Part shown: positions 6,301 to 30,769 of the stretch, one piece after another
Layout of the letters: the number at the start of each line of letters is the position of its first letter
Position numbering within the stretch: position 1 is the stretch's first letter
IMG/VR virus record: IMGVR_UViG_3300045988_125345
Span: 1 to 33,382 of that record
DNA from: a virus
Direction: 5' to 3' (one strand)
Length of the DNA stretch: 33,382 bases
The notes under the pieces: generated by a model
Told to the model about the DNA's origin: nothing
The model's database searches: none
The model's input: the letters and a program-made list of their open reading frames with translations, nothing else
Position numbers and translations under genes: made by a program

Positions 6301-7375
6301 TGGAGGCGGCGTTCGACAACGGCACGAATCCTGCGAGCATTTCGCCGAACGTATCCACCATGCCCGAATCGGAGATGGCGGTCAACGCCTTGCCGACGTT
6401 CGCGGACAATGTGGTGGCGGCTTCGGCGGACCTTACACCAATCGTGTTCTTGATGCTGTTCCACGCGCGGTCTGCCGTGACAGGCATGGCGGCGAACTGC
6501 TTTTCGATGGCGTCGGCGTTCTCAAGCACCGTGTCATAGAGGGCTTGGCCGCTGATTTTGCCTTCCTTGCCCAACTGCTTCAGGTCGCCCACGGACACGT
6601 TAAGATGCTTGGCGAGCATTCGTGCGATTTGCGGCGAGTTCTCCATGATGGAATTCAGCTCGTCGCCGTTGACGATGCCCTTGCCCAACGCCTGTGTAAT
6701 CTGCCGCATGGCGCTGGACGCCTCCTGCGTGGATGCGCCGGTGCTAATCATGTTCATGTCGAGCAGTTTCGTGAACTTCGCGGCATCGCCGTAATTGGAC
6801 ACGACTTCAGGCGCGAGCGTGCGCAGACGTGCGGCCGACTGGACGAAATCGTCAGTGGTCACGCCGACCCGGTTCGCGTATTTCAGCGACGTCTCAAGCG
6901 AGTCCTTATAGTCCCCTGCGTTGCCCACCGCGTTCTTCAGCATGGCGGTGGTCTGGCCCCACTGGTTGCCCATTTCGATGATGTTGGACGTCACGCCCTT
7001 GACGGCCTTGCCGACCGATGCGACCGCGGCGATGGCGGCGGCCGTGTTCAGATACTTGCCGATGTCGAGGCTTGCGAAGCTGTTTCCGAAGGCGTTGGCG
7101 GAACGACGTCCACCGGCGGTGAAGGAGGCGAACACGCCGCTGAGCGCGCCTTTCACGCCGCCTTGCAGGTTGAGGCTCTTATTGAACGAGCCGGAGAAGA
7201 GTTTGGACATGCCCAAGCCGTGCGAAGTGAAGAGTCGGCTTGTGCCGGACGCCAGCTTGGGCTGGACGGCTGGGGTGAGCACCGCTCCCTTGCTTGCCTT
7301 GACAAGTGCGGACTGCAAGCCTTCCAACGACGGGAGTACTTGAATCCATGCGGTCGCGATGCTGCCCTTTGCCAT
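3374..7375 (-). CDS. Tail tape measure protein
   Basis: 1333-aa ORF that is rich in A, G, S and L, with long helical and hydrophobic tracts. It lies between the frameshifted chaperones and Dit. Confidence 0.9.
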   Translation of the reverse strand: MAKGSIATAWIQVLPSLEGLQSALVKASKGAVLTPAVQPKLASGTSRLFTSHGLGMSKLFSGSFNKSLNLQGGVKGALSGVFASFTAGGRRSANAFGNSFASLDIGKYLNTAAAIAAVASVGKAVKGVTSNIIEMGNQWGQTTAMLKNAVGNAGDYKDSLETSLKYANRVGVTTDDFVQSAARLRTLAPEVVSNYGDAAKFTKLLDMNMISTGASTQEASSAMRQITQALGKGIVNGDELNSIMENSPQIARMLAKHLNVSVGDLKQLGKEGKISGQALYDTVLENADAIEKQFAAMPVTADRAWNSIKNTIGVRSAEAATTLSANVGKALTAISDSGMVDTFGEMLAGFVPLSNAASTLAATFINQLAPAVNKAFDPKQVEQFLAPLTNLISLNSQNANLLSSLGDMLNTVGVIGTTVFSLMVATNDRFASRIPFIGRALVGVKNTLIKLGSSFTGTFGAAISASASVIDKLAAMAGALSKTLAESTRVQNALGKFNVAFEDLGTYAFGFGEKGAAGFDIVQKAATNLLNGVGHVSDNVKLLQSGLNAMGSDADALPEAFLKAFETLGKEMDAAAKKKAPSLVQAFRDIRAAADTIVVDSDIYRSLDAAGQDADVYRDKLVQVGREFKELTGLKIPNAFLPLVGSAVSASDSIMQTFGNLKTGLSNYAANTAQQWAPVKDILAEIVSNAKTKIEVLRADVESGVLSMVASAKGKASEFKAVFAEMLDTTGISAAMSQLGSTVGNGLSHVKGVLASFGSEVASTLSIPLQGLPEKLFGSFKGVNPFTPLTNAAKTFGTGLSATFGGAVSRIVGRFSPLASAGKAAFATIGSAALKVSSGALKGFGAAVNGVGAAIGKIGGIASQLGVTGAIFTGLTAGFQTLFKLDPSQMTGKFDEWQKSLDNTLTGIQTKLPAMASAFAAALPQMVSSVTAALPGIADALMSVGQTLAPALMTVLPQITQAFSDMFAQLPGLISTYGQPMLAAFGTLFATLAGQIPSLMTSLGQALVAGVQAAFSAISDSSGAIAGFISGFGASLASGIQTLGATVVAALPSIGQSIASALPTLIPALMSAITSVITSLAAALPGIAVAIINQLPAIIGGLASGIVNGLPTLIGAFVSVVTSIAANFPSLFMAVAGTIPAIIGNIARPFAGLGGRILGYVRGIPGQIIGMFASAGSWLINSGAALMNGFKQGILGAVESVKSAVKGALQKVRDFFPFSPAKVGPFSGSGYTSVSGEHLMRDFGKAIGAQGPFVRGQVDDVLGSLDFDQIDTADLGVVSKPRLADYTGMVAAAQPTGGVHIDNVVASPLSDVELVARRFGYALNNEMIGSVRP

Positions 7376-7378
7376 CTG

Positions 7379-7965
7379 CTATTCCTTTCGGTGAAGACCC
7401 AACGCCTTGTTGATGTCTTCGGTGTTCATCGAATCGAGTTCGTAATCCTCCTTCTTGGTGTCCTTCTGGTTTTCCGGCAACACGCTTTTCGGCTTCTGCC
7501 CCTTGCCGGAGTAGGGGGCGAGCGTCGACTGTTGGATGATATCGAGCAGTCGGGCGGTCGCGCCGAACGTGCCTATGAGTTTCGCTCTCTCTATGAGGGT
7601 GTATTGTCGTGGGCTGCCGTATTGGCTTGCGAAATCAGCTAAGATTTGGCTGTCCCACTTGTCCGGGTTCAGCGCATACGTCAGTCTTTCGACTGGGAAC
7701 CCAAAAGCGTCGGCAATTTTCCCGACAGGTATTCCCATGCGTCGAGCACGTCGTCGTCGAACGCGGCCATGACCGCCTCGTACTTGTCTTCCTTCAGGAC
7801 GCCGCGCATGAGCTTGTCCACGAGCCAGATTGCCTCCATGCTGTCTTCCACGCCTTCGGAGTGGATTGCCTGTTGGAATTTGCGGTTGCGGAGCAGTTTC
7901 GCATAGGCGTCCGCCCAATCGTCGTTGAAGTCTTCGACGGTGATGGTGGGCTTGCGTTTTGCCAT
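7379..7965 (-). CDS. Tail assembly chaperone frameshift product (G-T-like), made by a -1 frameshift at 7717-7723
   Basis: The second ORF (7379..7918) is in the -1 frame relative to the G ORF and overlaps its 3' end. The G frame reads G GGA AAA at the overlap. Confidence 0.65.
7681..7965 (-). CDS. Tail assembly chaperone (G-like, short product)
   Basis: The start is ATG 7965 (MAKRKPTITVEDF...), preceded by GAAAGGAAAA. The gene is directly upstream of the tape measure and ends shortly after a slippery heptamer. Confidence 0.7.
   Translation of the reverse strand: MAKRKPTITVEDFNDDWADAYAKLLRNRKFQQAIHSEGVEDSMEAIWLVDKLMRGVLKEDKYEAVMAAFDDDVLDAWEYLSGKLPTLLGSQSKD
7717..7723 (-). promoter_or_regulatory. 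-1 programmed ribosomal frameshift slippery heptamer GGGAAAA
   Basis: The plus strand reads ttttccc at 7717-7723. On the minus strand this is G_GGA_AAA in the G frame, and the -1 frame continues as GKIADAFGFPVERL... Confidence 0.65.
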
Positions 7966-11107: not shown

Positions 11108-12555
11108 CAGGCAATCACCTCCCTGACCTTGCGCTCCTTCGGACGGTTGACGCCGCGATACCACGCGGCGATGGACACGCCCTTCAGACCGGCCGTTGTC
11201 TCGGTCTTGCGTATCGGAGCGAACTTCCACTGGTCATCCGAACCGGACTTGAGCTTCTGCGCGTTCTGCACTTCCGCGGTCAGCTGCGGGTTGTTCGTAT
11301 GCTTGAAGCGTCCCTCGTCCAGCAGGTCGAGGAATCCCTGCTGGGATGCGAGGAATTCGGTGCCAGTCAGCTGCACGACGTTCAGGCCGCGCGGAAGCAT
11401 GTCCCTTATCGGATTGTTCAAGCCGCCAGCATCCAGAATGAGCGTGGTCTTGCGTGGGCGCGTCTTCAGCTCGTCCACGACCCACTGCCATGATTCGGTG
11501 GTGGGACGTTCGTCCACGATTTCGCCGATGATGTACGCCCACTTGTCGTAATGCTTCGAGCCGACCGTCACCTCTTCGGTGCTTGCTGCCACGGACAGGG
11601 CAAGCGTGCTGGTGGCCGGGTCGAAGGTGAGCGCGTAGACAAGCGTGTCGCGGTCATGCTGGAGGTCGGAGTAGGCGCTGTCCCACAGGTCCGTCGGGAT
11701 TGCGGGCGGAATGCTGTCCGCCCACCACAGGCCGAGGTCTTGGATGCGGAAGTCTATGAGGCCGTCCGCGCCGCCCTGCTTGGCTATCGCCACGTCGGTG
11801 AGGAACGCCTCGCGTGGAATAACGTCCGGGTAGAGCGGGTTGGTGAGCGCCCACAGCTGTTCGTCTTCGATGTCCGCCGTCTCGTCGTCGATGCCGTAGC
11901 GCACTGCATACGACATATCGTCGTTCTCCGCGTTGTCGAGGAACACGTTGAACGTGTCGCCGATGGACGAGGGGAGGAACGGGGTGCCAGTGTAGATTAT
12001 CATCGCCATGCGGCGCGTCTTCAACGTCTTCGAAATCATCGCCTCGTATTCGGAGCGGAGTTCCTGAGCCTCGTCGAAGATGACCAAATCGAACGTGCCG
12101 CCCATGCCCGCGGAAGCGCTCTTGCGGGAGCGGAACCGGACGAACGCGCCGTTGCGCAACTGTAGGCGCTCGCGGCCCATGGTGGTGCTGAAGTGAGTAA
12201 CCTCGGCCTTCAGCTCCGGGTTCGCGTCGATGGCGTCCTTCAAATCCTCCATGATTTTGTTGGCCGCAATCTGCTCGTGCGCTGTGACGAGCACGTTCAG
12301 GCCGAGCACGAACAGGTAGTAGAGGATTGGTGCGGTGAGGATTTTCGTCTTGCCGTTCTGACGCGGCATGTTCAGCGCCACGCGCTTGTACTTCCAAGTG
12401 CCGTCCTTCTTGCGCTGGAAGGCGTTGTTGAGGAATTCGACCTGAAACGGGAGGATTGCGTTCCCGCGGCCCCAGTTCACGTATTCCGCGGCCATGATTG
12501 CCACGTCGGACTGCGGTCGGACCGCAGCCCTCCAGTTTGGATTCTTTACCAGCAT
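11107..12555 (-). CDS. Terminase large subunit
   Basis: 482 aa. It has a Walker A-like NMPRQNGKT, a Walker B LVIFDEAQE, and a C-terminal nuclease half. Confidence 0.9.
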   Translation of the reverse strand: MLVKNPNWRAAVRPQSDVAIMAAEYVNWGRGNAILPFQVEFLNNAFQRKKDGTWKYKRVALNMPRQNGKTKILTAPILYYLFVLGLNVLVTAHEQIAANKIMEDLKDAIDANPELKAEVTHFSTTMGRERLQLRNGAFVRFRSRKSASAGMGGTFDLVIFDEAQELRSEYEAMISKTLKTRRMAMIIYTGTPFLPSSIGDTFNVFLDNAENDDMSYAVRYGIDDETADIEDEQLWALTNPLYPDVIPREAFLTDVAIAKQGGADGLIDFRIQDLGLWWADSIPPAIPTDLWDSAYSDLQHDRDTLVYALTFDPATSTLALSVAASTEEVTVGSKHYDKWAYIIGEIVDERPTTESWQWVVDELKTRPRKTTLILDAGGLNNPIRDMLPRGLNVVQLTGTEFLASQQGFLDLLDEGRFKHTNNPQLTAEVQNAQKLKSGSDDQWKFAPIRKTETTAGLKGVSIAAWYRGVNRPKERKVREVIA

Positions 12556-19334: not shown

Positions 19335-19445
19335 CCCTAGCACACTCGCCAAGAGTTCGCAACTACGGCATTTCGGAAATCGTTTGGTTTCCAGTCTCCT
19401 TGTGGGCCGTAGGAAGCGTAGGCGAGTGTTCTAGGGTTTTTTTTT
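19335..19445 (+). other. Nested long stem-loop followed by a T9 run, lying in the leader of the primase operon. On the plus strand it looks like an intrinsic terminator.
   Basis: ccctagcacactcgcc (19335-19350) pairs with ggcgagtgttctaggg (19421-19436), 15 of 16. An inner stem ctacggc/gccgtag is also present. Then ttttttttt follows at 19437-19445. Confidence 0.4.
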
Positions 19446-19461
19446 GCCCTTTTTTATGTGA

Positions 19462-19498
19462 ACACGACTTGACAACCGTGTGGCGGATGGTGTATACG
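19462..19498 (+). promoter_or_regulatory. Rightward promoter P0 (TTGACA-N17/18-TATACG), facing the ORF-free region
   Basis: acacgacTTGACAaccgtgtggcggatggtgTATACg. The core is homologous to P3 (ttgacaaccgt...atggt(g)tatac). Confidence 0.4.
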
Positions 19499-19524
19499 CG
19501 CGCGCGCACGCGCGCCTCACGCGC

Positions 19525-19553
19525 TTTATATAGATAAAGGACACAACAACAAC
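19525..19553 (-). promoter_or_regulatory. Candidate leftward promoter for the primase/structural operon (TTGTTG-N16-TATAAA)
   Basis: The minus strand reads ttgttgtgtcctttatctatataaag. The -35 hexamer lies inside the (TTG)n tract. This is the only sigma70-like match I see upstream of 19290. Confidence 0.25.
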
Positions 19554-19561
19554 AACAACAA
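19544..19561. repeat. (CAA)6 trinucleotide microsatellite
   Basis: caacaacaacaacaacaa, read directly from the sequence. Confidence 0.95.
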
Positions 19562-19666
19562 CCCTTATATACCTACACCTACACACTACACTTATTGGGC
19601 TTTGAGAGGGGTCAGCCTCATGCGCACGCGTGATACACCTCGACACGCCAAAAGTCAAGGACTTGC

Positions 19667-19788
19667 TGTGACTATTGGCCCTCGAATTTATCGAAATCGA
19701 CTGTGATTTTCGTCACATTTTCACATAGCTCGCAACTCATTCACAGTTCCATCACAGAATCTATTGCCCCTAACTTGAGTTGTCCACA
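19667..19788. promoter_or_regulatory. Cluster of DnaA-box-like TCACA/TGTGA motifs including one perfect TTGTCCACA; candidate replication origin
   Basis: This is a locally AT-rich stretch. TGTGA occurs at 19667 and 19702. TCACA occurs at 19713, 19721, 19741 and 19752. TTGTCCACA lies at 19780-19788. Confidence 0.4.
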
Positions 19789-20391
19789 GGCTCAGCGTTG
19801 GAAATCCGCCAAAACCAAGACGCCCTCGCATGACTTGGCCGCGCTACTCGAATAGCAACGGCCTGACCGCCGACCAACATGGTCGCCGATTCCTCGAAAC
19901 CGTTGGAACGACGCCATTCCCAGATGGTCGTGGCGCGGGCTGGCCGAATCTTCACAATTGCCCGTTGACCGCAGATTTTCGGCGTCGCACGGCCTTCGCT
20001 GTGTCACGCATGGACTGCGACACAGCCATGGCCGCATGCGGAGCAATTTCCTGACGTCGGGAAAATGGTCGCGCGGGCCTTCTGGAGACGGCCGCATCCA
20101 CCATGGCCGCAACTGCCGGAGGCGTGGAATCGAATAAAGGCGTCTCTGAGGGCCTTTTAGCGCTGGCATGTAAAAGTATTAGGGTTCGGCGTGAAAGCCC
20201 GTCTAAGGCCCCAAAGAATCGCTCTCAGATGGCACCATTGCCCATTCGCCCTCGTCGGCGCAATTGGCAAGGCGTGCGGTGAGGCTCCGGCGTGTCCTTT
20301 TTCCGGCACCCCCCCCTGCGTCGGGGTGTCTCTCCCTGTCTGTTATTGGGAATCGTTCTCGTTTTGTCGACGTGTCGGCGGCGTCCATGGG

Positions 20392-20612
20392 TTAACCGCG
20401 TTAACGTCTCAATCGGGTTAACGTATCAACCAAGTTCATGCGTTAACCAAGTTCATGCATTAACCGTGTTGATGTGTTAACCGTGTTGATGTGTTAACCG
20501 TGTTCATCTGTTAACCGTGTTCATGCATTAACCGTGTTCATCTGTCAACCACGTTCATGCATTAACCATGTTCATGCGTTAACTGGGTTCACTCCTTAAC
20601 CGGGTTCACGTC
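20392..20612. repeat. Iteron array: 11 tandem 17-bp units in exact register (20426-20612) plus 3 degenerate TTAAC half-units upstream
   Basis: Units start at 20426, 20443, 20460 ... 20596. The consensus is TTAACCGTGTTCATGCR. Two adjacent units are identical (ttaaccgtgttgatgtg). Confidence 0.9.
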
Positions 20613-20625
20613 GACGTCGCGTTAT

Positions 20626-20640
20626 TGAGAACAGTTCTCA
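20626..20640. promoter_or_regulatory. Perfect 15-bp palindrome TGAGAACAGTTCTCA abutting promoter P1 (operator candidate)
   Basis: 7-1-7 dyad located 12 bp upstream of the P1 -35 hexamer. Confidence 0.5.
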
Positions 20641-20681
20641 CGACACGCCGACTTGACTCACGGCACCAAATGCGGTATATT
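20641..20681 (+). promoter_or_regulatory. Early promoter P1 (CGACACGCC element, TTGACT-N17-TATATT)
   Basis: cgacacgccgacTTGACTcacggcaccaaatgcggTATATT, followed by the AAGGAGG RBS and ATG 20708. Confidence 0.65.
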
Positions 20682-20707
20682 AAAACCATCAACCAAGGAG
20701 GTACGAA

Positions 20708-20890
20708 ATGCACAAGGCACTTAATGGCAAGGGATATATCAAGGACGGAGAAGGGGTGTTCGTCACCACGTCGGGCGAGGTGTACGCCTACCGCGACGGG
20801 GAGCTGACGCCATCCACCGCAACCGAAGACCCGAAGGCGTACGTCGAACTGGCGCGCGGCATGTTCGCCCGAACGACACGCCGCACTTGA
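20708..20890 (+). CDS. Early hypothetical protein (60 aa)
   Basis: AAGGAGG lies 7 nt upstream. This is the first gene after P1. Confidence 0.6.
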   Translation: MHKALNGKGYIKDGEGVFVTTSGEVYAYRDGELTPSTATEDPKAYVELARGMFARTTRRT

Positions 20891-20915
20891 CATCCAACGC
20901 CAAGTCAGGTATATT
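20874..20915 (+). promoter_or_regulatory. Early promoter P2 (CGACACGCC element, TTGACA-N17-TATATT)
   Basis: cgacacgccgcacTTGACAtccaacgccaagtcaggTATATT. The stop codon of the preceding gene lies inside the -35 hexamer. Confidence 0.65.
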
Positions 20916-20943
20916 AAAAGCATCAACCAAAGGAGTGATTAAA

Positions 20944-21318: not shown

Positions 21319-21360
21319 CGACACGCCGACATTGACAACCGTATACCACATGGTATACCA
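21319..21360 (+). promoter_or_regulatory. Early promoter P3 (CGACACGCC element, TTGACA-N16-TATACC)
   Basis: cgacacgccgacaTTGACAaccgtataccacatggTATACCa, followed by the AAGGAG RBS and ATG 21389. Confidence 0.5.
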
Positions 21361-21388
21361 AAGATATACAAACCAAGGAGTGATTGAA

Positions 21389-21610
21389 ATGCGTAAAGAA
21401 ACATTCATCGACAACATGAAGGCACGCGGATACGAATTGCGGAACGTCCGCAACGGCAACGTGATTGCGAGGAAAGGCGACATCACAATCAGGTGGGTCA
21501 CGCTCGCGAACTATGGCGTGTACATCGACACGCCAACCGTGACCGCTCTCACCGACGAGAACGCGACGGACGAAGAGACGATGCGGATAGTCGACGCCCT
21601 GACGGCCTGA
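21389..21610 (+). CDS. Early hypothetical protein (73 aa)
   Basis: ATG 21389 follows AAGGAG. The longer track ORF from 21188 would span P3. Confidence 0.6.
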   Translation: MRKETFIDNMKARGYELRNVRNGNVIARKGDITIRWVTLANYGVYIDTPTVTALTDENATDEETMRIVDALTA

Positions 21611-21659: not shown

Positions 21660-21698
21660 TAGACAACATAAGCCATCTGTTATTAAGAAGTGGTTGAA

Positions 21699-23309
21699 AT
21701 GGCTGACAGAATTGCAATCCTAGGCGGGGAGCCGTATGGCGAGTGGATTAAGCGCGACAGCCAAGCGCAAAGGCTGTACCGCGAGTATTGCGCCAAGTGG
21801 CCGGACGGTAACGCCGAGTGCTTCGTGGCCGGAGAGGACTTCTACGTCCGCCTCAACAACGGGAAAATGCGTTACGTCGACAGCGCCGACGACTTCGATG
21901 ATGAGGCCGCGTGGTGCGCGCAGTGTGGCGTGCCGGTTGACGTCGACAGTGGCGACTACTGCATCTGCGACGCCGATGATTGCGACGCGGTTCCCTGCAA
22001 GTACTGCGGGGGCGACATGCTGGGAGACTACTATTGCCCGCGTCACCGTGGATACGACGTGCTGAAGTACGTCAAGGAGCCGGAATACGTCTACCCCTAC
22101 GCGTTCGGGGACGGTGACCAATTCACGTTCGGCGTCGAGATTGAAATTGAGTCCGAACTGTCCGAAGAGTTTGCCGAAGGCGTCAAGGAATCCGACTTGG
22201 TTGCCGGCTGGGACAGTGACCAGTCACTCGACGCGGGCGGCATTGAGTTGCAGAGCAACATCCTTGACATGTCCAAACTGTCCGCGTTGCGTGAGTTGGT
22301 TGAGGACATCCCGGAATGCGGGGAGAACGCGGGCGGCCACATCCACGTTGCCCGCACGCCAAACCAGTGCGCTAGCCGCTGGTACTGGGCGCTACGCGGA
22401 CTGGATATCGCGCAATGCCAGCGCCTCAACATGCGCCACATGGGTGATGATTATTGGTGCACCCTCACCCATGGCGACTACACGGGCAAGCACGTGGCCG
22501 TCAACGACGAACACGCGGACACTATCGAACTTCGTACGTTCGACTGCTGGTATGCGGGTACCGCGGGCAAACTCGTCCCGGCCGTCAAGTGGATTCGTGC
22601 CATGTGGCGCTTCTTCGAGAAGTACCCCCGCGGCACCATTGAGGCCGCCGCCATCGAACAGTACTCTTCGTGCGTGGCCGACAACGTGACCGACACGCCC
22701 CGCCGCACGCTCGAAGAACGGCTTGCGGACGCCCACCGCGCCGCCGCCGCACGCAAGGCGGAGGAGGAGTGCGAGCGCGAGCGCCGCGCCGACGAAAACC
22801 GCCGCCGCGTCGAGAAGAACGTGAGGGAGTCGCGCCGCGCGCGTAAGAGCCATGGCGACTCAACCGCGGCCATCATTGCATGGCGCGAGCACGGGAAACG
22901 CCGCGAGCGCGGCCGCGAGCGCGTCGAGGAAAACCTCGCCAGCGGCTACTGCGTCTACGCGTTCCCGTCCCGCAATCTCAAGCCGTTGCACATCTACTTG
23001 CGCATGGTTGACGCGAGACTCGAACGCGGCGGCACGTTCCGCAGTCTGAGCAACTTCTTCATCTACCACCCATACGACGGGGCGACGGTGTGGGACGGTT
23101 ACGCATACTTGTACAGACCTGAAGGCGATACCGTCGCGCGGGTGGTCAACAATATCATCCGCAGCCGTATCGCACGCGCGTCCCACGGCACGCCGACGAG
23201 GGAATCACTGGAGCGCACAGCGTTGCGCATCTACAAGCACATCGGACGTCCCGAATTGAACGAACGCTACGCGCAGATTCGCAAGAATCTCGCGCGCGGC
23301 AACAACTGA
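21699..23309 (+). CDS. Amidoligase_2-type (glutamine-synthetase-like COOH-NH2 ligase) multidomain protein
   Basis: The motifs FTFGVEIEIESE ... SLDAGGIELQSNIL ... ENAGGHIHVA are present. There is a Cys-rich N-terminal region (CAQCG..CICD..CKYCG..CPRH), a very charged R/E helix (aa ~345-400) and an extra C-terminal domain. The start is ATG 21699 or GTG 21690. Confidence 0.7.
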   Translation: MADRIAILGGEPYGEWIKRDSQAQRLYREYCAKWPDGNAECFVAGEDFYVRLNNGKMRYVDSADDFDDEAAWCAQCGVPVDVDSGDYCICDADDCDAVPCKYCGGDMLGDYYCPRHRGYDVLKYVKEPEYVYPYAFGDGDQFTFGVEIEIESELSEEFAEGVKESDLVAGWDSDQSLDAGGIELQSNILDMSKLSALRELVEDIPECGENAGGHIHVARTPNQCASRWYWALRGLDIAQCQRLNMRHMGDDYWCTLTHGDYTGKHVAVNDEHADTIELRTFDCWYAGTAGKLVPAVKWIRAMWRFFEKYPRGTIEAAAIEQYSSCVADNVTDTPRRTLEERLADAHRAAAARKAEEECERERRADENRRRVEKNVRESRRARKSHGDSTAAIIAWREHGKRRERGRERVEENLASGYCVYAFPSRNLKPLHIYLRMVDARLERGGTFRSLSNFFIYHPYDGATVWDGYAYLYRPEGDTVARVVNNIIRSRIARASHGTPTRESLERTALRIYKHIGRPELNERYAQIRKNLARGNN

Positions 23310-23315
23310 GACTAT

Positions 23316-23338
23316 CGGGGGCGGGAACGTCCCGCCCC
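23316..23338 (+). terminator. 10-bp all-GC hairpin between the amidoligase and amidotransferase genes (attenuator or processing-site candidate)
   Basis: gggggcggga-acg-tcccgccccc, followed by accgttt. There is no long U tract. Confidence 0.4.
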
Positions 23339-23364
23339 CACCGTTTAGAAAAGAGGTAAAAACA

Positions 23365-23865
23365 ATGTGTGTAATCGTTACGGCCGTGCCCGGCTCCATG
23401 CCTGAGCCTGAGGACATCCTAGCCATGAGTGACGCGAACCCGGACGGGGGCGGCGTGAGCTGGTGGGATGGGGAGCGCCTGAGGGTGTTCAAGAACGTTG
23501 ACACCCTGAAGGTGGTGGGCTTCATCTACAGCCATTGGGATAGTCTCAAGCGCGCCCCGTGTCTCATTCATTTCCGTCTCGCCACGCATGGCGCGGTGTC
23601 GCCTGAGAACTGCCACCCGTTCCACACTGAGCGCGGCTATATCGCACACAACGGTATCGCCCACGACTTCGAGGACGGCCCGTATGAGTGCGACACTAAG
23701 AACATGGTGCGCGCGTGGATTGACAGCGGATACGATAACGACACGTTCGCCGGTCAGGGTCTCGTGGCCCTCATCACCCCGCACGGTTGCCTTAAGTGGC
23801 TGGAGGGCAAGCCGATTGAATACGGGCAAGGTGTATGGGTCTCCAATATGTTTTGGGATATCTGA
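23365..23865 (+). CDS. Class II (Ntn) glutamine amidotransferase-like thiol enzyme
   Basis: The protein begins Met-Cys (MCVIV), and carries HFRLATHGAVSPENCHPF and IAHNGIA motifs. It is 166 aa long and has an AGAGG RBS. Confidence 0.7.
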   Translation: MCVIVTAVPGSMPEPEDILAMSDANPDGGGVSWWDGERLRVFKNVDTLKVVGFIYSHWDSLKRAPCLIHFRLATHGAVSPENCHPFHTERGYIAHNGIAHDFEDGPYECDTKNMVRAWIDSGYDNDTFAGQGLVALITPHGCLKWLEGKPIEYGQGVWVSNMFWDI

Positions 23866-29602: not shown

Positions 29603-30142
29603 ATGCTGAACGACATCACCATCGAACAGTGCGTGGACCATCAAGACCTCATCCTGCCATACACGGAAGAACAGTTGAACCCCAACTCGTACGACGTGAC
29701 CTTGCAGGACACCATCATCACCTATGGCATGGATTCGGAGGACGGCTACGCGGACGGCGGCGACCACACGTTGCACGGCGTCCACACCAAGCCCGTCAGA
29801 ATCGTCGGACACTACATGCTCCAGCCCGGCCAGTTCGTGCTGGGAGCCACCGTGGAGAAAATCAGCCTCCCGGACAACATGATGGCACGGTTCGACGGGA
29901 AAAGCAGTCTCGGCCGACTCGGACTCTGCACGCATGTGACCGCCGGGTTCATCGACGCCGGATTCATCGGCACCATCACCGTCGAACTGAAGAACGAGAA
30001 TAATTTCCCCATCATGCTGAAGCCCGGCATGCGAATCGGCCAAGTGTCTTTCGAATACTTGAACGCCGCCTCGGTGAAACCGTACGGCATGGTCGGCCAC
30101 TACCAGCATCAGAACGCGCCACAGCCAGCGGTGGAGGTTTGA
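29603..30142 (+). CDS. dcd: dCTP deaminase family protein (possibly bifunctional dCTP deaminase-dUTPase)
   Basis: LNPNSYDVTL ... FDGKSSLGRLGLCTHVTAGFIDAGFIGTITVELKNENNFPIMLKPGMRIGQVSF. Confidence 0.85.
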   Translation: MLNDITIEQCVDHQDLILPYTEEQLNPNSYDVTLQDTIITYGMDSEDGYADGGDHTLHGVHTKPVRIVGHYMLQPGQFVLGATVEKISLPDNMMARFDGKSSLGRLGLCTHVTAGFIDAGFIGTITVELKNENNFPIMLKPGMRIGQVSFEYLNAASVKPYGMVGHYQHQNAPQPAVEV

Positions 30143-30290: not shown

Positions 30291-30411
30291 AGCACTGGCC
30301 CACCTCGACCCGACTCTGTGTAAGCATTGCCTGAAGAAGCTCACTCAGAAAGAATTATGGCTTTTCGACGGGTACTGCACAACATGCTGGAGGTTGCGCG
30401 GTGGCAATTGA
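30283..30411 (+). CDS. Small zinc-ribbon protein (42 aa)
   Basis: MLRALAHLDPTLCKHCLKKLTQKELWLFDGYCTTCWRLRGGN, with the start overlapping the previous stop. Confidence 0.35.
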   Translation: MLRALAHLDPTLCKHCLKKLTQKELWLFDGYCTTCWRLRGGN

Positions 30412-30769
30412 ATGTGACTGGCGTGACAGCGGCAAATACTATCTGAGCCCGGAGCAGGAAAGCGCCATAAAGATGCGGAGCATAGCATGGTACGGCCCCG
30501 ACACGCAGACCACCACATGCATGGAGGAATGCGCGGAACTCATTCAGGCAATCAGCAAGCTCAAACGCTTCAATCCCGAAGACCCGAACAACAAGGTCGA
30601 CCGCAAGGAGCTTATCGAGAACCTGTACGAGGAAGTGGCCGACGTGCTGATATGCATTGACCTGCTGACCGAAATCTACGGGCTGAAATTTGGCGACGTG
30701 CGGCGCATGATACATCACAAGGTGTGGCGCATGAAGCGGAGGATGGAAGCGCAGGGGGCGGAATTATGA
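30401..30769 (+). CDS. mazG: MazG-like nucleotide pyrophosphohydrolase
   Basis: CMEECAELIQAISK ... LIENLYEEVADVLICIDLL is the EExxE / ExxD metal-binding helix pattern. The start is uncertain (GTG 30401 or ATG 30473). Confidence 0.65.
   Translation: MAIECDWRDSGKYYLSPEQESAIKMRSIAWYGPDTQTTTCMEECAELIQAISKLKRFNPEDPNNKVDRKELIENLYEEVADVLICIDLLTEIYGLKFGDVRRMIHHKVWRMKRRMEAQGAEL

Follow-up and report, generated by a model that had tools for sequence, protein, structure and literature searches.

Positions 21699 to 23865 of the viral sequence IMGVR_UViG_3300045988_125345 carry two adjacent open reading frames (ORFs) on the same strand, ORF-A and ORF-B. The whole 33,382-base stretch, hereafter the window, represents an essentially complete siphophage genome. 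A preliminary description made from the sequence alone had read the pair as an amidoligase followed by a glutamine amidotransferase (GATase)-like enzyme of the class II, or N-terminal nucleophile (Ntn), type. Our analysis points to a divergent ligase of the glutamine synthetase (GS) fold and a minimal cysteine hydrolase, which may well act on one and the same kind of amide bond. The features of the locus, with protein lengths in amino acids (aa), are as follows.

21699-23309, plus strand: ORF-A, ATG start, 536 aa; predicted divergent Amidoligase_2/GS-fold carboxylate-amine ligase with accessory domains
23317-23339, plus strand: GC-rich hairpin between ORF-A and ORF-B, 10-bp stem and 3-nt loop, with no T-tract after it
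23350-23356, plus strand: Shine-Dalgarno-like AAAGAGG, 8 nt 5′ of the ORF-B ATG
23365-23865, plus strand: ORF-B, 166 aa, Met-Cys start; predicted minimal class II (Ntn) GATase-fold Cys hydrolase

The ATG at 21699 is favored as the start of ORF-A because the homologues begin MADRIA; the alternative GTG at 21690 would lengthen the protein by 3 aa. A collection of 5.8 billion proteins yielded 398 relatives at E ≤ 0.001, the best 120 of which are nearly all full length (about 530 to 540 aa). The layout of the protein, with the predicted local distance difference test score (pLDDT) of the core and the isoelectric points (pI) of the basic parts, is given below.

21699-21899, plus strand: aa 1-67, small acidic alpha/beta N-terminal domain, present in the phage long form only and without family match
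21900-22103, plus strand: aa 68-135, putative zinc-ribbon module with a conserved Cys/His set
22104-22703, plus strand: aa 136-335, predicted catalytic core, pLDDT about 90, with the motif set
22704-22943, plus strand: aa 336-415, long Arg/Glu-rich helix, pI 10.6, containing the motif NVRESRRARKSH (aa 374) at its end
22944-23306, plus strand: aa 416-536, basic C-terminal domain, pI 10.2, with a second motif copy, NIIRSRIARASH (aa 485)

Every motif that the preliminary description had quoted from the 536-aa ORF was located, namely FGVEIEIE (aa 144-151), DAGGIELQS (aa 178-186), and GGHIHVA (aa 212-218). The modules said to surround the core are likewise present in the AlphaFold2 (AF2) model and the sequence, i.e., the N-terminal Cys module (CAQCG..CICD..CKYCG..CPRH, aa 73-116), the charged helix (predicted at aa 338-414), and the extra C-terminal domain (aa 415-536). 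In the close family, no variation was seen at C73, C76, C90, C95, C100, C103, C113, or H116, a set that would suffice for about two zinc sites. The basic C-terminal half of ORF-A holds the pattern N[VI]xxSRxARxSH twice, at aa 374-385 (22818-22853) and aa 485-496 (23151-23186). The first copy is still recognizable in long-form relatives of 28 to 37% identity, and the repeat could serve in binding or in self-modification.

Full-length ORF-A had no match in Pfam at E ≤ 0.1 and no significant match among PHROGs, NCBIfam, or PDB sequences, and its core (aa 126-334) reached PF12224 (Amidoligase_2) as the top Pfam match with only 13.4 bits (E = 0.069), under the gathering threshold of 22 bits. Since these direct searches were empty, family profiles and structure were used for placement. 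A family profile run against 1.84 billion representative proteins returned just 133 matches, indicating a narrow family. Among these sequences it reached the protein P0367 (E = 9.3e-4), which itself passes PF12224 with 35.9 bits; a homologue search seeded with P0367 gave only six matches, and its core leads to a Bifidobacterium phage gene by tblastn (4e-5). Profile-profile alignment (hhalign) of the 25-sequence ORF-A family with five phage Amidoligase_2 proteins gave a probability of 90.1% (E = 1.6e-6) over 154 columns; of the five, Ottawa gp65 reached 117.5 bits in a PF12224 scan, and the other four are annotated amidoligases. The AF2 model of ORF-A has a pLDDT of about 90 over aa 140-335. 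In Foldseek searches of the PDB its top match was YbdK (1r8g; E = 1.2e-4, probability 0.99), and all 50 of the 50 matches listed were YbdK or glutamine synthetases. The TM-scores are low (0.2 to 0.3) because the query has several domains. In BFVD, 39 proteins matched the model at E ≤ 0.001, most of the named ones as "Amidoligase enzyme"; ranks 2 to 43 mostly bear this name, with many unnamed, and include a protein of the Arthrobacter phage Salgado as well as a protein named "LIM domain" that likewise combines zinc fingers with the ligase.

Residue conservation agrees with this placement. G145, E147, E149, S176, E183, G212-G213-H214-x-H216, K264, A267, and R279 are invariant family-wide, down to 20 to 30% identity, and N269, H272, T275, and E277 become so when two bridging proteins are excluded. 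The ORF-A elements GxExE, S176, E183, GGHxH, K264..N269, and TIELR align with FGIEIEF, D.S, GLE.VSP, CGxHVH, R..N, and TIEFR of Amidoligase_2, and the metal/ATP motif set of the GS superfamily (ExE strand, further Glu, HxH, basic residue plus Asn, ExR) appears complete. The agreement of profile comparison, P0367 bridge, predicted fold, BFVD matches, and invariant motifs identifies ORF-A, at the level of sequence and model, as a divergent member of the Amidoligase_2/GS-fold ligase superfamily that the Pfam model misses. The Amidoligase_2 assignment of the preliminary description is thus borne out by hhalign, fold, and motifs, short of the PF12224 threshold. Two other leads were dropped. A PDB profile search with the full ORF-A alignment matched RNF31, UHRF1, and B-box zinc fingers, which describe the N-terminal module only, and a kinship with pupylation enzymes was not borne out, neither PafA nor Dop being among the 50 PDB matches listed. 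Separately, a 453-aa BFVD entry at rank 9 (A0A2L1J0D3), which comes from Mycobacterium phage Tesla and is labeled "glutamine amidotransferase domain protein," aligns with the ligase fold of ORF-A over 324 columns (E = 1e-7) and might be a GATase-amidoligase fusion; this candidate, if genuine, would constitute Rosetta-stone evidence for joint action of both activities.

ORF-B was found as the preliminary description had it, a 166-aa, Met-Cys-initiated frame 55 nt downstream of the ORF-A stop, with the motifs HFRLATHG (aa 69-76), NCHPF (aa 82-86), and HNG (aa 95-97). It passes the GATase_4 model (PF13230) with 33.6 bits (E = 2.5e-8; threshold, 23 bits), and most of its 126 relatives carry a precomputed PF13230 match. 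The protein begins M-C-V-I, with Cys2, which 90% or more of the aligned homologues share, directly after the initiator Met. Among relatives as distant as 30% identity, R71 and G97 do not vary, and N96 and D110 are kept in at least 90%. Alignment with Escherichia coli GlmS (1xff) equates R71 with R73, T74-H75-G76 with T76-H77-G78, and H95-N96-G97 with H97-N98-G99; D110 is probably the counterpart of GlmS D123, judging by the SD(S/T) motif. The predicted key residues are the nucleophile Cys2, R71, N96-G97, and D110. The AlphaFold model (pLDDT 94.6; predicted TM-score [pTM] 0.91) adopts the alpha-beta-beta-alpha Ntn sandwich, without a fused synthase domain, i.e., a minimal stand-alone Ntn domain. 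Foldseek matched it with a probability of 1.00 to GlmS, GFAT, EgtC, and PurF, with TMq values of 0.63 to 0.69 for the E. coli GlmS glutaminase domain and 0.70 to 0.74 for EgtC, the best. Likeness to EgtC is structural only, as far as the model goes: ORF-B scores 24 bits on TIGR03442 against a cutoff of 218.65, and the window contains no egt genes. The GATase_4 match, the predicted Ntn fold, and the active-site residues together uphold the class II assignment, and residues and model are best explained by a pocket suited to L-glutamine or to a gamma-glutamyl group with free alpha-amino and alpha-carboxylate moieties.

The two genes go together in every one of the roughly 50 loci that have enough downstream sequence. 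An ORF-B relative follows an ORF-A relative on the same strand in 13 of 13 public-database loci and in 33 of 33 IMG/VR loci. The order holds in a syntenic 38-kb phage (locus L026), where the ORF-A relative is only 28% identical, and in locus L028, where a GATase_4 gene comes after the PF12224 protein P0367. ORF-A and ORF-B accordingly match the conserved amidoligase and GATase-like/AIG2 neighborhood of the Pfam description of PF12224, in which an Ntn GATase-like or gamma-glutamyl cyclotransferase gene adjoins the ligase gene. The pairing is indeed a known one, as had been proposed at the outset, and is annotated also in Arthrobacter, Pseudomonas, and marine phages. The 55-nt spacer between the ORF-A stop and the ORF-B start folds at -26 kcal/mol. 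Hairpins of unrelated sequence also lie between the two genes in L026 (9826-9852) and in locus L003 (2337-2364, 2385-2410), so that the phage spacer hairpin is conserved in structure and not in sequence across these three genomes. It may be an attenuator or a processing/stability signal setting the ratio of the enzymes. Ligase and hydrolase genes of chromosomal elements abut or overlap. Just 5′ of ORF-A, GGTTCGAGTCC resembled a tRNA T-arm; ARAGORN and Rfam gave no tRNA there, and it is one among several intergenic hairpins.

The host group of the phage, whose size is roughly 33 kb, is Bifidobacterium. Relatives in the cultured-phage collection are confined to eight Bifidobacterium phages, with Bifidobacterium pseudocatenulatum and Bifidobacterium adolescentis as hosts, and all their ORF-A and ORF-B homologues are labeled "hypothetical protein." The many relatives, together with median dN/dS values of 0.22 for ORF-A and 0.10 for ORF-B over 25 intact genomes, mark both as real genes under purifying selection. 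The pair is also repeatedly lost. In five cultured isolates (BP677P1-4 and P8), ORF-A falls into two tblastn pieces; in BP677P2 (L001, OP172701.1, 2700-2720), a -1 frameshift reduces AAA to AA at about aa 255, between HxH and ExR. BP742P1 (L025, OP172705.1, 2913-3543) has lost most of ORF-A and retains an intact ORF-B. Metagenomes contribute 13 distinct chimeric proteins joining part of ORF-A to part of ORF-B (P0138, P0156, P0201, P0228, P0230, P0231, P0236, P0237, P0278, P0337, P0346, P0358, and P0360); these are independent deletions with differing breakpoints, and the contigs that hold them fall 1.5 to 2 kb short of intact genomes. Damage to one of the two genes affects about 5 of the 33 IMG/VR loci, and frameshifted or internally deleted copies occur in several IMG/VR genomes (loci L056, L057, L058, and L061). 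The locus is thus a recurrent deletion site. Intact copies nevertheless predominate, with cluster sizes in the hundreds. The pair is accessory, since it is repeatedly deleted or frameshifted both in nature and in cultured isolates, and in the latter plaque formation survives the frameshift or deletion of ORF-A. A module dispensable for plaque formation yet kept in nature fits a conditionally useful function.

Beyond phages, at least eight Bifidobacterium species carry a short form of ORF-A on their chromosomes, and the clade is restricted to Bifidobacterium phages and integrative elements. The short form consists of about 13 CxxC pairs and the core without the C-terminal half, and a GATase_4 protein of 205 to 221 aa is encoded after it. 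Its surroundings look like integrative, probably conjugative, elements, with genes for a tyrosine integrase, CHAP hydrolase, TopB-like topoisomerase, single-stranded DNA-binding protein (SSB), DUF3846, DUF4192, PBECR4, and several toxin-antitoxin pairs. A divergent helix-turn-helix (HTH) gene stands just upstream of the pair in most chromosomal loci, and in one widely sampled element (L018-L020), the pair directly adjoins two ArdA-family anti-restriction genes. The ArdA pair, the PBECR4 nuclease-domain gene, and toxin-antitoxin modules of the TacA/GNAT, RelB, and Phd/ParE types map to L018 (10963-12863) and L004 (4265-5760 and 13524-15632), and an AAA_23/DUF2326, MC6, and CTD10 cluster in locus L015 looks like a defense system.

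In the window, transcription is leftward over the left 19 kb, which encodes tape measure, large terminase, and tail proteins and a primase-polymerase. Rightward genes begin at about 20.65 kb, where three promoter-like elements stand one before each of three small ORFs.

20651-20685, plus strand: early promoter-like element copy 1, ACTTGAC-N16-GGTATATTAAAA, preceding a 60-aa ORF
20885-20919, plus strand: early promoter-like element copy 2, ACTTGAC-N16-GGTATATTAAAA, preceding the phrog_4264 ORF (to 21315)
21331-21365, plus strand: weaker third promoter-like element, TTGACA-N16-TATACC, read from the sequence and preceding a small ORF that ends at 21610

The pattern ACTTGAC-N16-GGTATATTAAAA has two exact matches in the window versus none in 100 shuffles, and the duplicated element spans 46 nt. 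ORF-A and ORF-B come next, followed by Erf, a gp2.5-like SSB, VRR-NUC, a RecE-like exonuclease, a helicase, a dCTP deaminase, and a MazG-like pyrophosphohydrolase. The position originally claimed for the pair, after three promoter-driven early genes and before the replication and nucleotide genes, is hence recovered, with two exact elements and a weaker one. No promoter-like element of this early type directly precedes ORF-A, so the pair is probably transcribed from the three upstream elements.

How might the two enzymes work together? By analogy with the GS fold, ORF-A would be an ATP-dependent carboxylate-amine ligase that activates a carboxylate as an acyl-phosphate and joins it to an amine. 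The zinc-ribbon module, in phages along with the basic C-terminal half, most likely directs ORF-A to a macromolecule, which would be a protein or perhaps a nucleic acid; such a target is suggested by zinc-ribbon arrays together with a basic tail. ORF-A would then write a gamma-glutamyl-type amide, and ORF-B would trim, mature, or erase the same amide. Gamma-glutamyl cyclotransferase cleaves gamma-glutamyl amides only and supplies no ammonia, and EgtC is a gamma-glutamyl-amide hydrolase. The couples EgtA/EgtC and PuuA/PuuD are precedents for a GS-fold ligase accompanied by a GATase-fold gamma-glutamyl hydrolase, and we are not aware of any GS-fold enzyme to which a GATase channels ammonia. Elsewhere among phages, Amidoligase_2 is accompanied by a gamma-glutamyl cyclotransferase that replaces or joins the Ntn enzyme, as in Bacillus phage 055SW001, L028 (GGACT), a Vibrio phage, and Phage-ZRK32. 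Cyclotransferase partners, the YafJ/EgtC type of ORF-B, the two precedents, and the want of any known GATase-fed GS-fold enzyme converge on a shared gamma-glutamyl amide.

The module would be used when mobile DNA enters a new cell, in host takeover or counter-defense. This is proposed because lytic phages and integrative elements share it, and it is suggested by the early position, putative HTH control in the elements, ArdA proximity in one of them, the proximity of Sequestin and Acb2/Tad1 genes, and frequent loss. Specifically, L026 encodes Sequestin (PF21825, an anti-Thoeris sponge) two genes after the pair (11586-11837), and L028 has the GGACT gamma-glutamylamine cyclotransferase gene upstream of the pair and an Acb2/Tad1-hairpin sponge gene downstream (1729-2136 and 7195-7464). 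The enzyme families, the active-site sets, the strict pairing, purifying selection, dispensability, and the two genomic settings stand as findings, and from all this we infer gamma-glutamyl chemistry, a macromolecular target, and an establishment or counter-defense role. As a whole, an early two-enzyme amide-bond module whose members both act on one gamma-glutamyl-type amide of a macromolecular target, with accessory use at entry time, is on balance the probable interpretation. The role at the entry of DNA into a new cell, which is reached by association, is by itself a tentative proposal that we hold with well under even confidence. A more specific version, in our view unlikely, is a counter-defense or host-takeover device shared by phages and integrative-conjugative elements, in which the zinc-finger ligase ORF-A would, by gamma-glutamylation or amidation, covalently tag a host protein of immunity or housekeeping or an immune signal bearing an amino acid, and ORF-B would mature or reset the tag. 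Were this true, the device would be the counterpart, in phages and mobile elements, of pupylation-type protein tagging at DNA entry.

Several points weigh against the shared-amide interpretation. No substrate can be read from the sequence, and the structures of both proteins are predictions. A ligase and a hydrolase acting on the same bond, with no intermediate enzyme, would be futile unless timed or targeted differently, and as ORF-B keeps all glutaminase residues, plain ammonia supply would be equally compatible. An early operon shared with anti-defense genes is weak guilt by association, and ArdA adjacency was seen in one element type only (L018-L020); it cannot be generalized because Pfam scans of the genes adjoining the pair in eight further Bifidobacterium genomes were uninformative. 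A plasmid search with the short form found no plasmid-borne module, the only match being to zinc fingers in an archaeal plasmid. Finally, neither ORF-A nor ORF-B had a match at E ≤ 1 in PADLOC-DB, which holds defense, not anti-defense, families.

The explanation that survives best beside it is a heteromeric glutamine-dependent amidotransferase, in which ORF-B would free ammonia from glutamine and ORF-A would turn an activated R-COOH into R-CONH2. It is quite possible because ORF-B keeps every glutaminase residue of the class II set (Cys2, R71, N96-G97, and D110); the abutting or overlapping genes of the chromosomal elements are typical of two-subunit amidotransferases, and glutamine synthetase itself takes ammonia as the nucleophile. 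We nonetheless consider it rather unlikely. The cyclotransferases that replace or accompany the Ntn enzyme elsewhere are unable to supply ammonia, no GS-fold ligase is known to us that receives channeled ammonia from a GATase subunit, and the best profile and fold class of ORF-B is the stand-alone YafJ/EgtC type and not a synthase-coupled domain. Improbable, in our judgment, is a modification of the envelope, with peptidoglycan or wall-polymer precursors as substrates, that would block the adsorption or entry of competing phages or elements. Such a role was suggested for the amidoligase clusters of phiEco32-type phages, a suggestion that later papers credit to Iyer et al. 2009. Exclusion would benefit phages and integrative elements alike, and peptidoglycan precursors present cytoplasmic carboxylates and amines; ORF-A, however, with its zinc-ribbon arrays and basic C-terminal half, is better suited to recognizing a protein or nucleic acid than a small precursor, and the early module of the window includes no envelope-related enzymes.

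Still less probable is a role in auxiliary metabolism, with the pair producing or recycling a small metabolite of gamma-glutamyl or amide type in nitrogen or thiol metabolism. Literature on amidoligase and GATase-like pairs contains this auxiliary metabolic gene reading, which was claimed for the Planctomycetes Phage-ZRK32 with its amidoligase, GATase, glutathione synthase, and gamma-glutamyl cyclotransferase (PMC10945688), and the closest solved fold to ORF-A, YbdK, is a weak gamma-glutamylcysteine ligase. Against it stand the zinc-finger and basic accessory domains of ORF-A, the location of the pair in integrative elements beside ArdA and toxin-antitoxin genes, its frequent natural loss, and a window with no further enzymes of such a pathway. 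Hypermodification of phage DNA or nucleotides with an amide-linked base group that evades restriction, to which the location of the pair upstream of replication and nucleotide genes (with dCTP deaminase and MazG-like pyrophosphohydrolase present) and a basic C-terminal half that could bind DNA would lend themselves, is the weakest rival and highly improbable because the window ORFs scanned include no companion hydroxymethylase, base kinase, transglycosylase (DpdA), glycosyltransferase, or methyltransferase and the pair is also chromosomal, in integrative elements where element-specific hypermodification is implausible, to which is added that plaque formation persists in isolates whose ORF-A is frameshifted or deleted.

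The gamma-glutamyl module with a macromolecular target remains the interpretation that we favor. The zinc fingers and basic tail point to such a target, and the short form behind a repressor-like gene, once beside ArdA, suggests a function at entry time. Cultured phages with natural loss of function, one by frameshift and one by deletion, make a phenotype test possible. If a host protein is tagged, phages would be acting on a major gut commensal through a new class of enzymatic interaction with their host.

Some further features of the genome lie outside the pair. No integrase or DNA-modification enzyme turned up among the window ORFs scanned. A tandem array of a 17-nt unit (20348-20608; consensus GTTCATGCGTTAACCGT; about 10 to 15 copies) is located within a stretch of about 1.3 kb without convincing ORFs (19363-20700), which separates the leftward primase-polymerase gene from the rightward early genes. 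This ORF-poor stretch is 74 to 80% conserved, and mostly unannotated, in the eight cultured relatives, and the array could serve as an origin, its units being iterons, or as a series of operators. The dCTP deaminase/dUTPase-like gene and that of the MazG-like NTP pyrophosphohydrolase map to 29603-30142 and 30401-30769, toward the end of the rightward module; L026 has a DCD-family gene at the same relative position.

Comparison with known systems places the pair among several precedents. EgtA/EgtC of actinobacterial ergothioneine synthesis and PuuA/PuuD of putrescine use each combine a GS/GCS2-fold ligase with a gamma-glutamyl-removing Cys amidohydrolase, as seems, by analogy, to be the case here; EgtC is the best TM-score match of ORF-B, and YbdK (GCS2) is the top match of ORF-A. 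ORF-A and ORF-B are not orthologues of these enzymes, neither EgtB/D/E nor Puu genes accompany them, and the zinc fingers of ORF-A suggest a macromolecular substrate. Pupylation by PafA/Dop shares the logic that a GS-fold enzyme ligates a gamma-carboxylate to a protein amine while a paired amidase deamidates or removes it, and it occurs in the same host phylum, Actinobacteria. It differs in that ORF-A exhibits no sequence or fold-level preference for it, the putative eraser ORF-B has an Ntn and not a GS fold, and no gene for a Pup-like tag was seen. The ArdA/SSB-type establishment genes of conjugative elements resemble the short-form pair in genetic setting, which likewise lies in integrative elements behind a divergent HTH gene and once beside two ArdA genes; ORF-A and ORF-B are nonetheless an enzyme pair and not a DNA mimic or binding protein, they show no plasmid carriage, and their anti-defense role is one that we infer.

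The nearest relatives in kind are phage pairs of Amidoligase_2 (PF12224) and GATase-like proteins, i.e., gp98/99 of Arthrobacter phage Salgado and gp65/66 of Ottawa and those of LUZ24-like and Paundecimvirus Pseudomonas phages and of marine OM43 phages. Neighborhoods of phage Amidoligase_2 with a class II GATase-like gene were reportedly first described by Iyer and coworkers in 2009. Annotated Amidoligase_2 genes are now present in 111 phage records and the Ntn partner in 187. A directed-evolution study recorded missense changes in both genes of a Pseudomonas phage pair; no functional study or substrate of any phage version was found in the literature searched, in line with the preliminary claim that none has a demonstrated substrate. 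The pair of the window has in common with these the ligase fold and motif set, the Ntn Cys-hydrolase gene immediately downstream on the same strand, and the location in an early/DNA metabolism region. It departs from them in that ORF-A scores under the Pfam threshold and adds a zinc-ribbon module, charged helix, and basic C-terminal domain, whereas ORF-B is a 166-aa GATase_4-type protein in place of the 295- to 486-aa GATase_6/7 partners of Arthrobacter and Pseudomonas phages (hhalign of ORF-B with Ottawa gp66 gave a probability of only 46%), and in that no ATP-grasp or COOH-NH2_lig genes accompany it. Collectively, the pairing of amidoligase and GATase-like genes is already known from Arthrobacter, Pseudomonas, and marine phages; what is new here is a Bifidobacterium-restricted clade under the Pfam threshold, with its accessory domains, minimal Ntn partner, sharing between phages and integrative elements, and natural knockouts.

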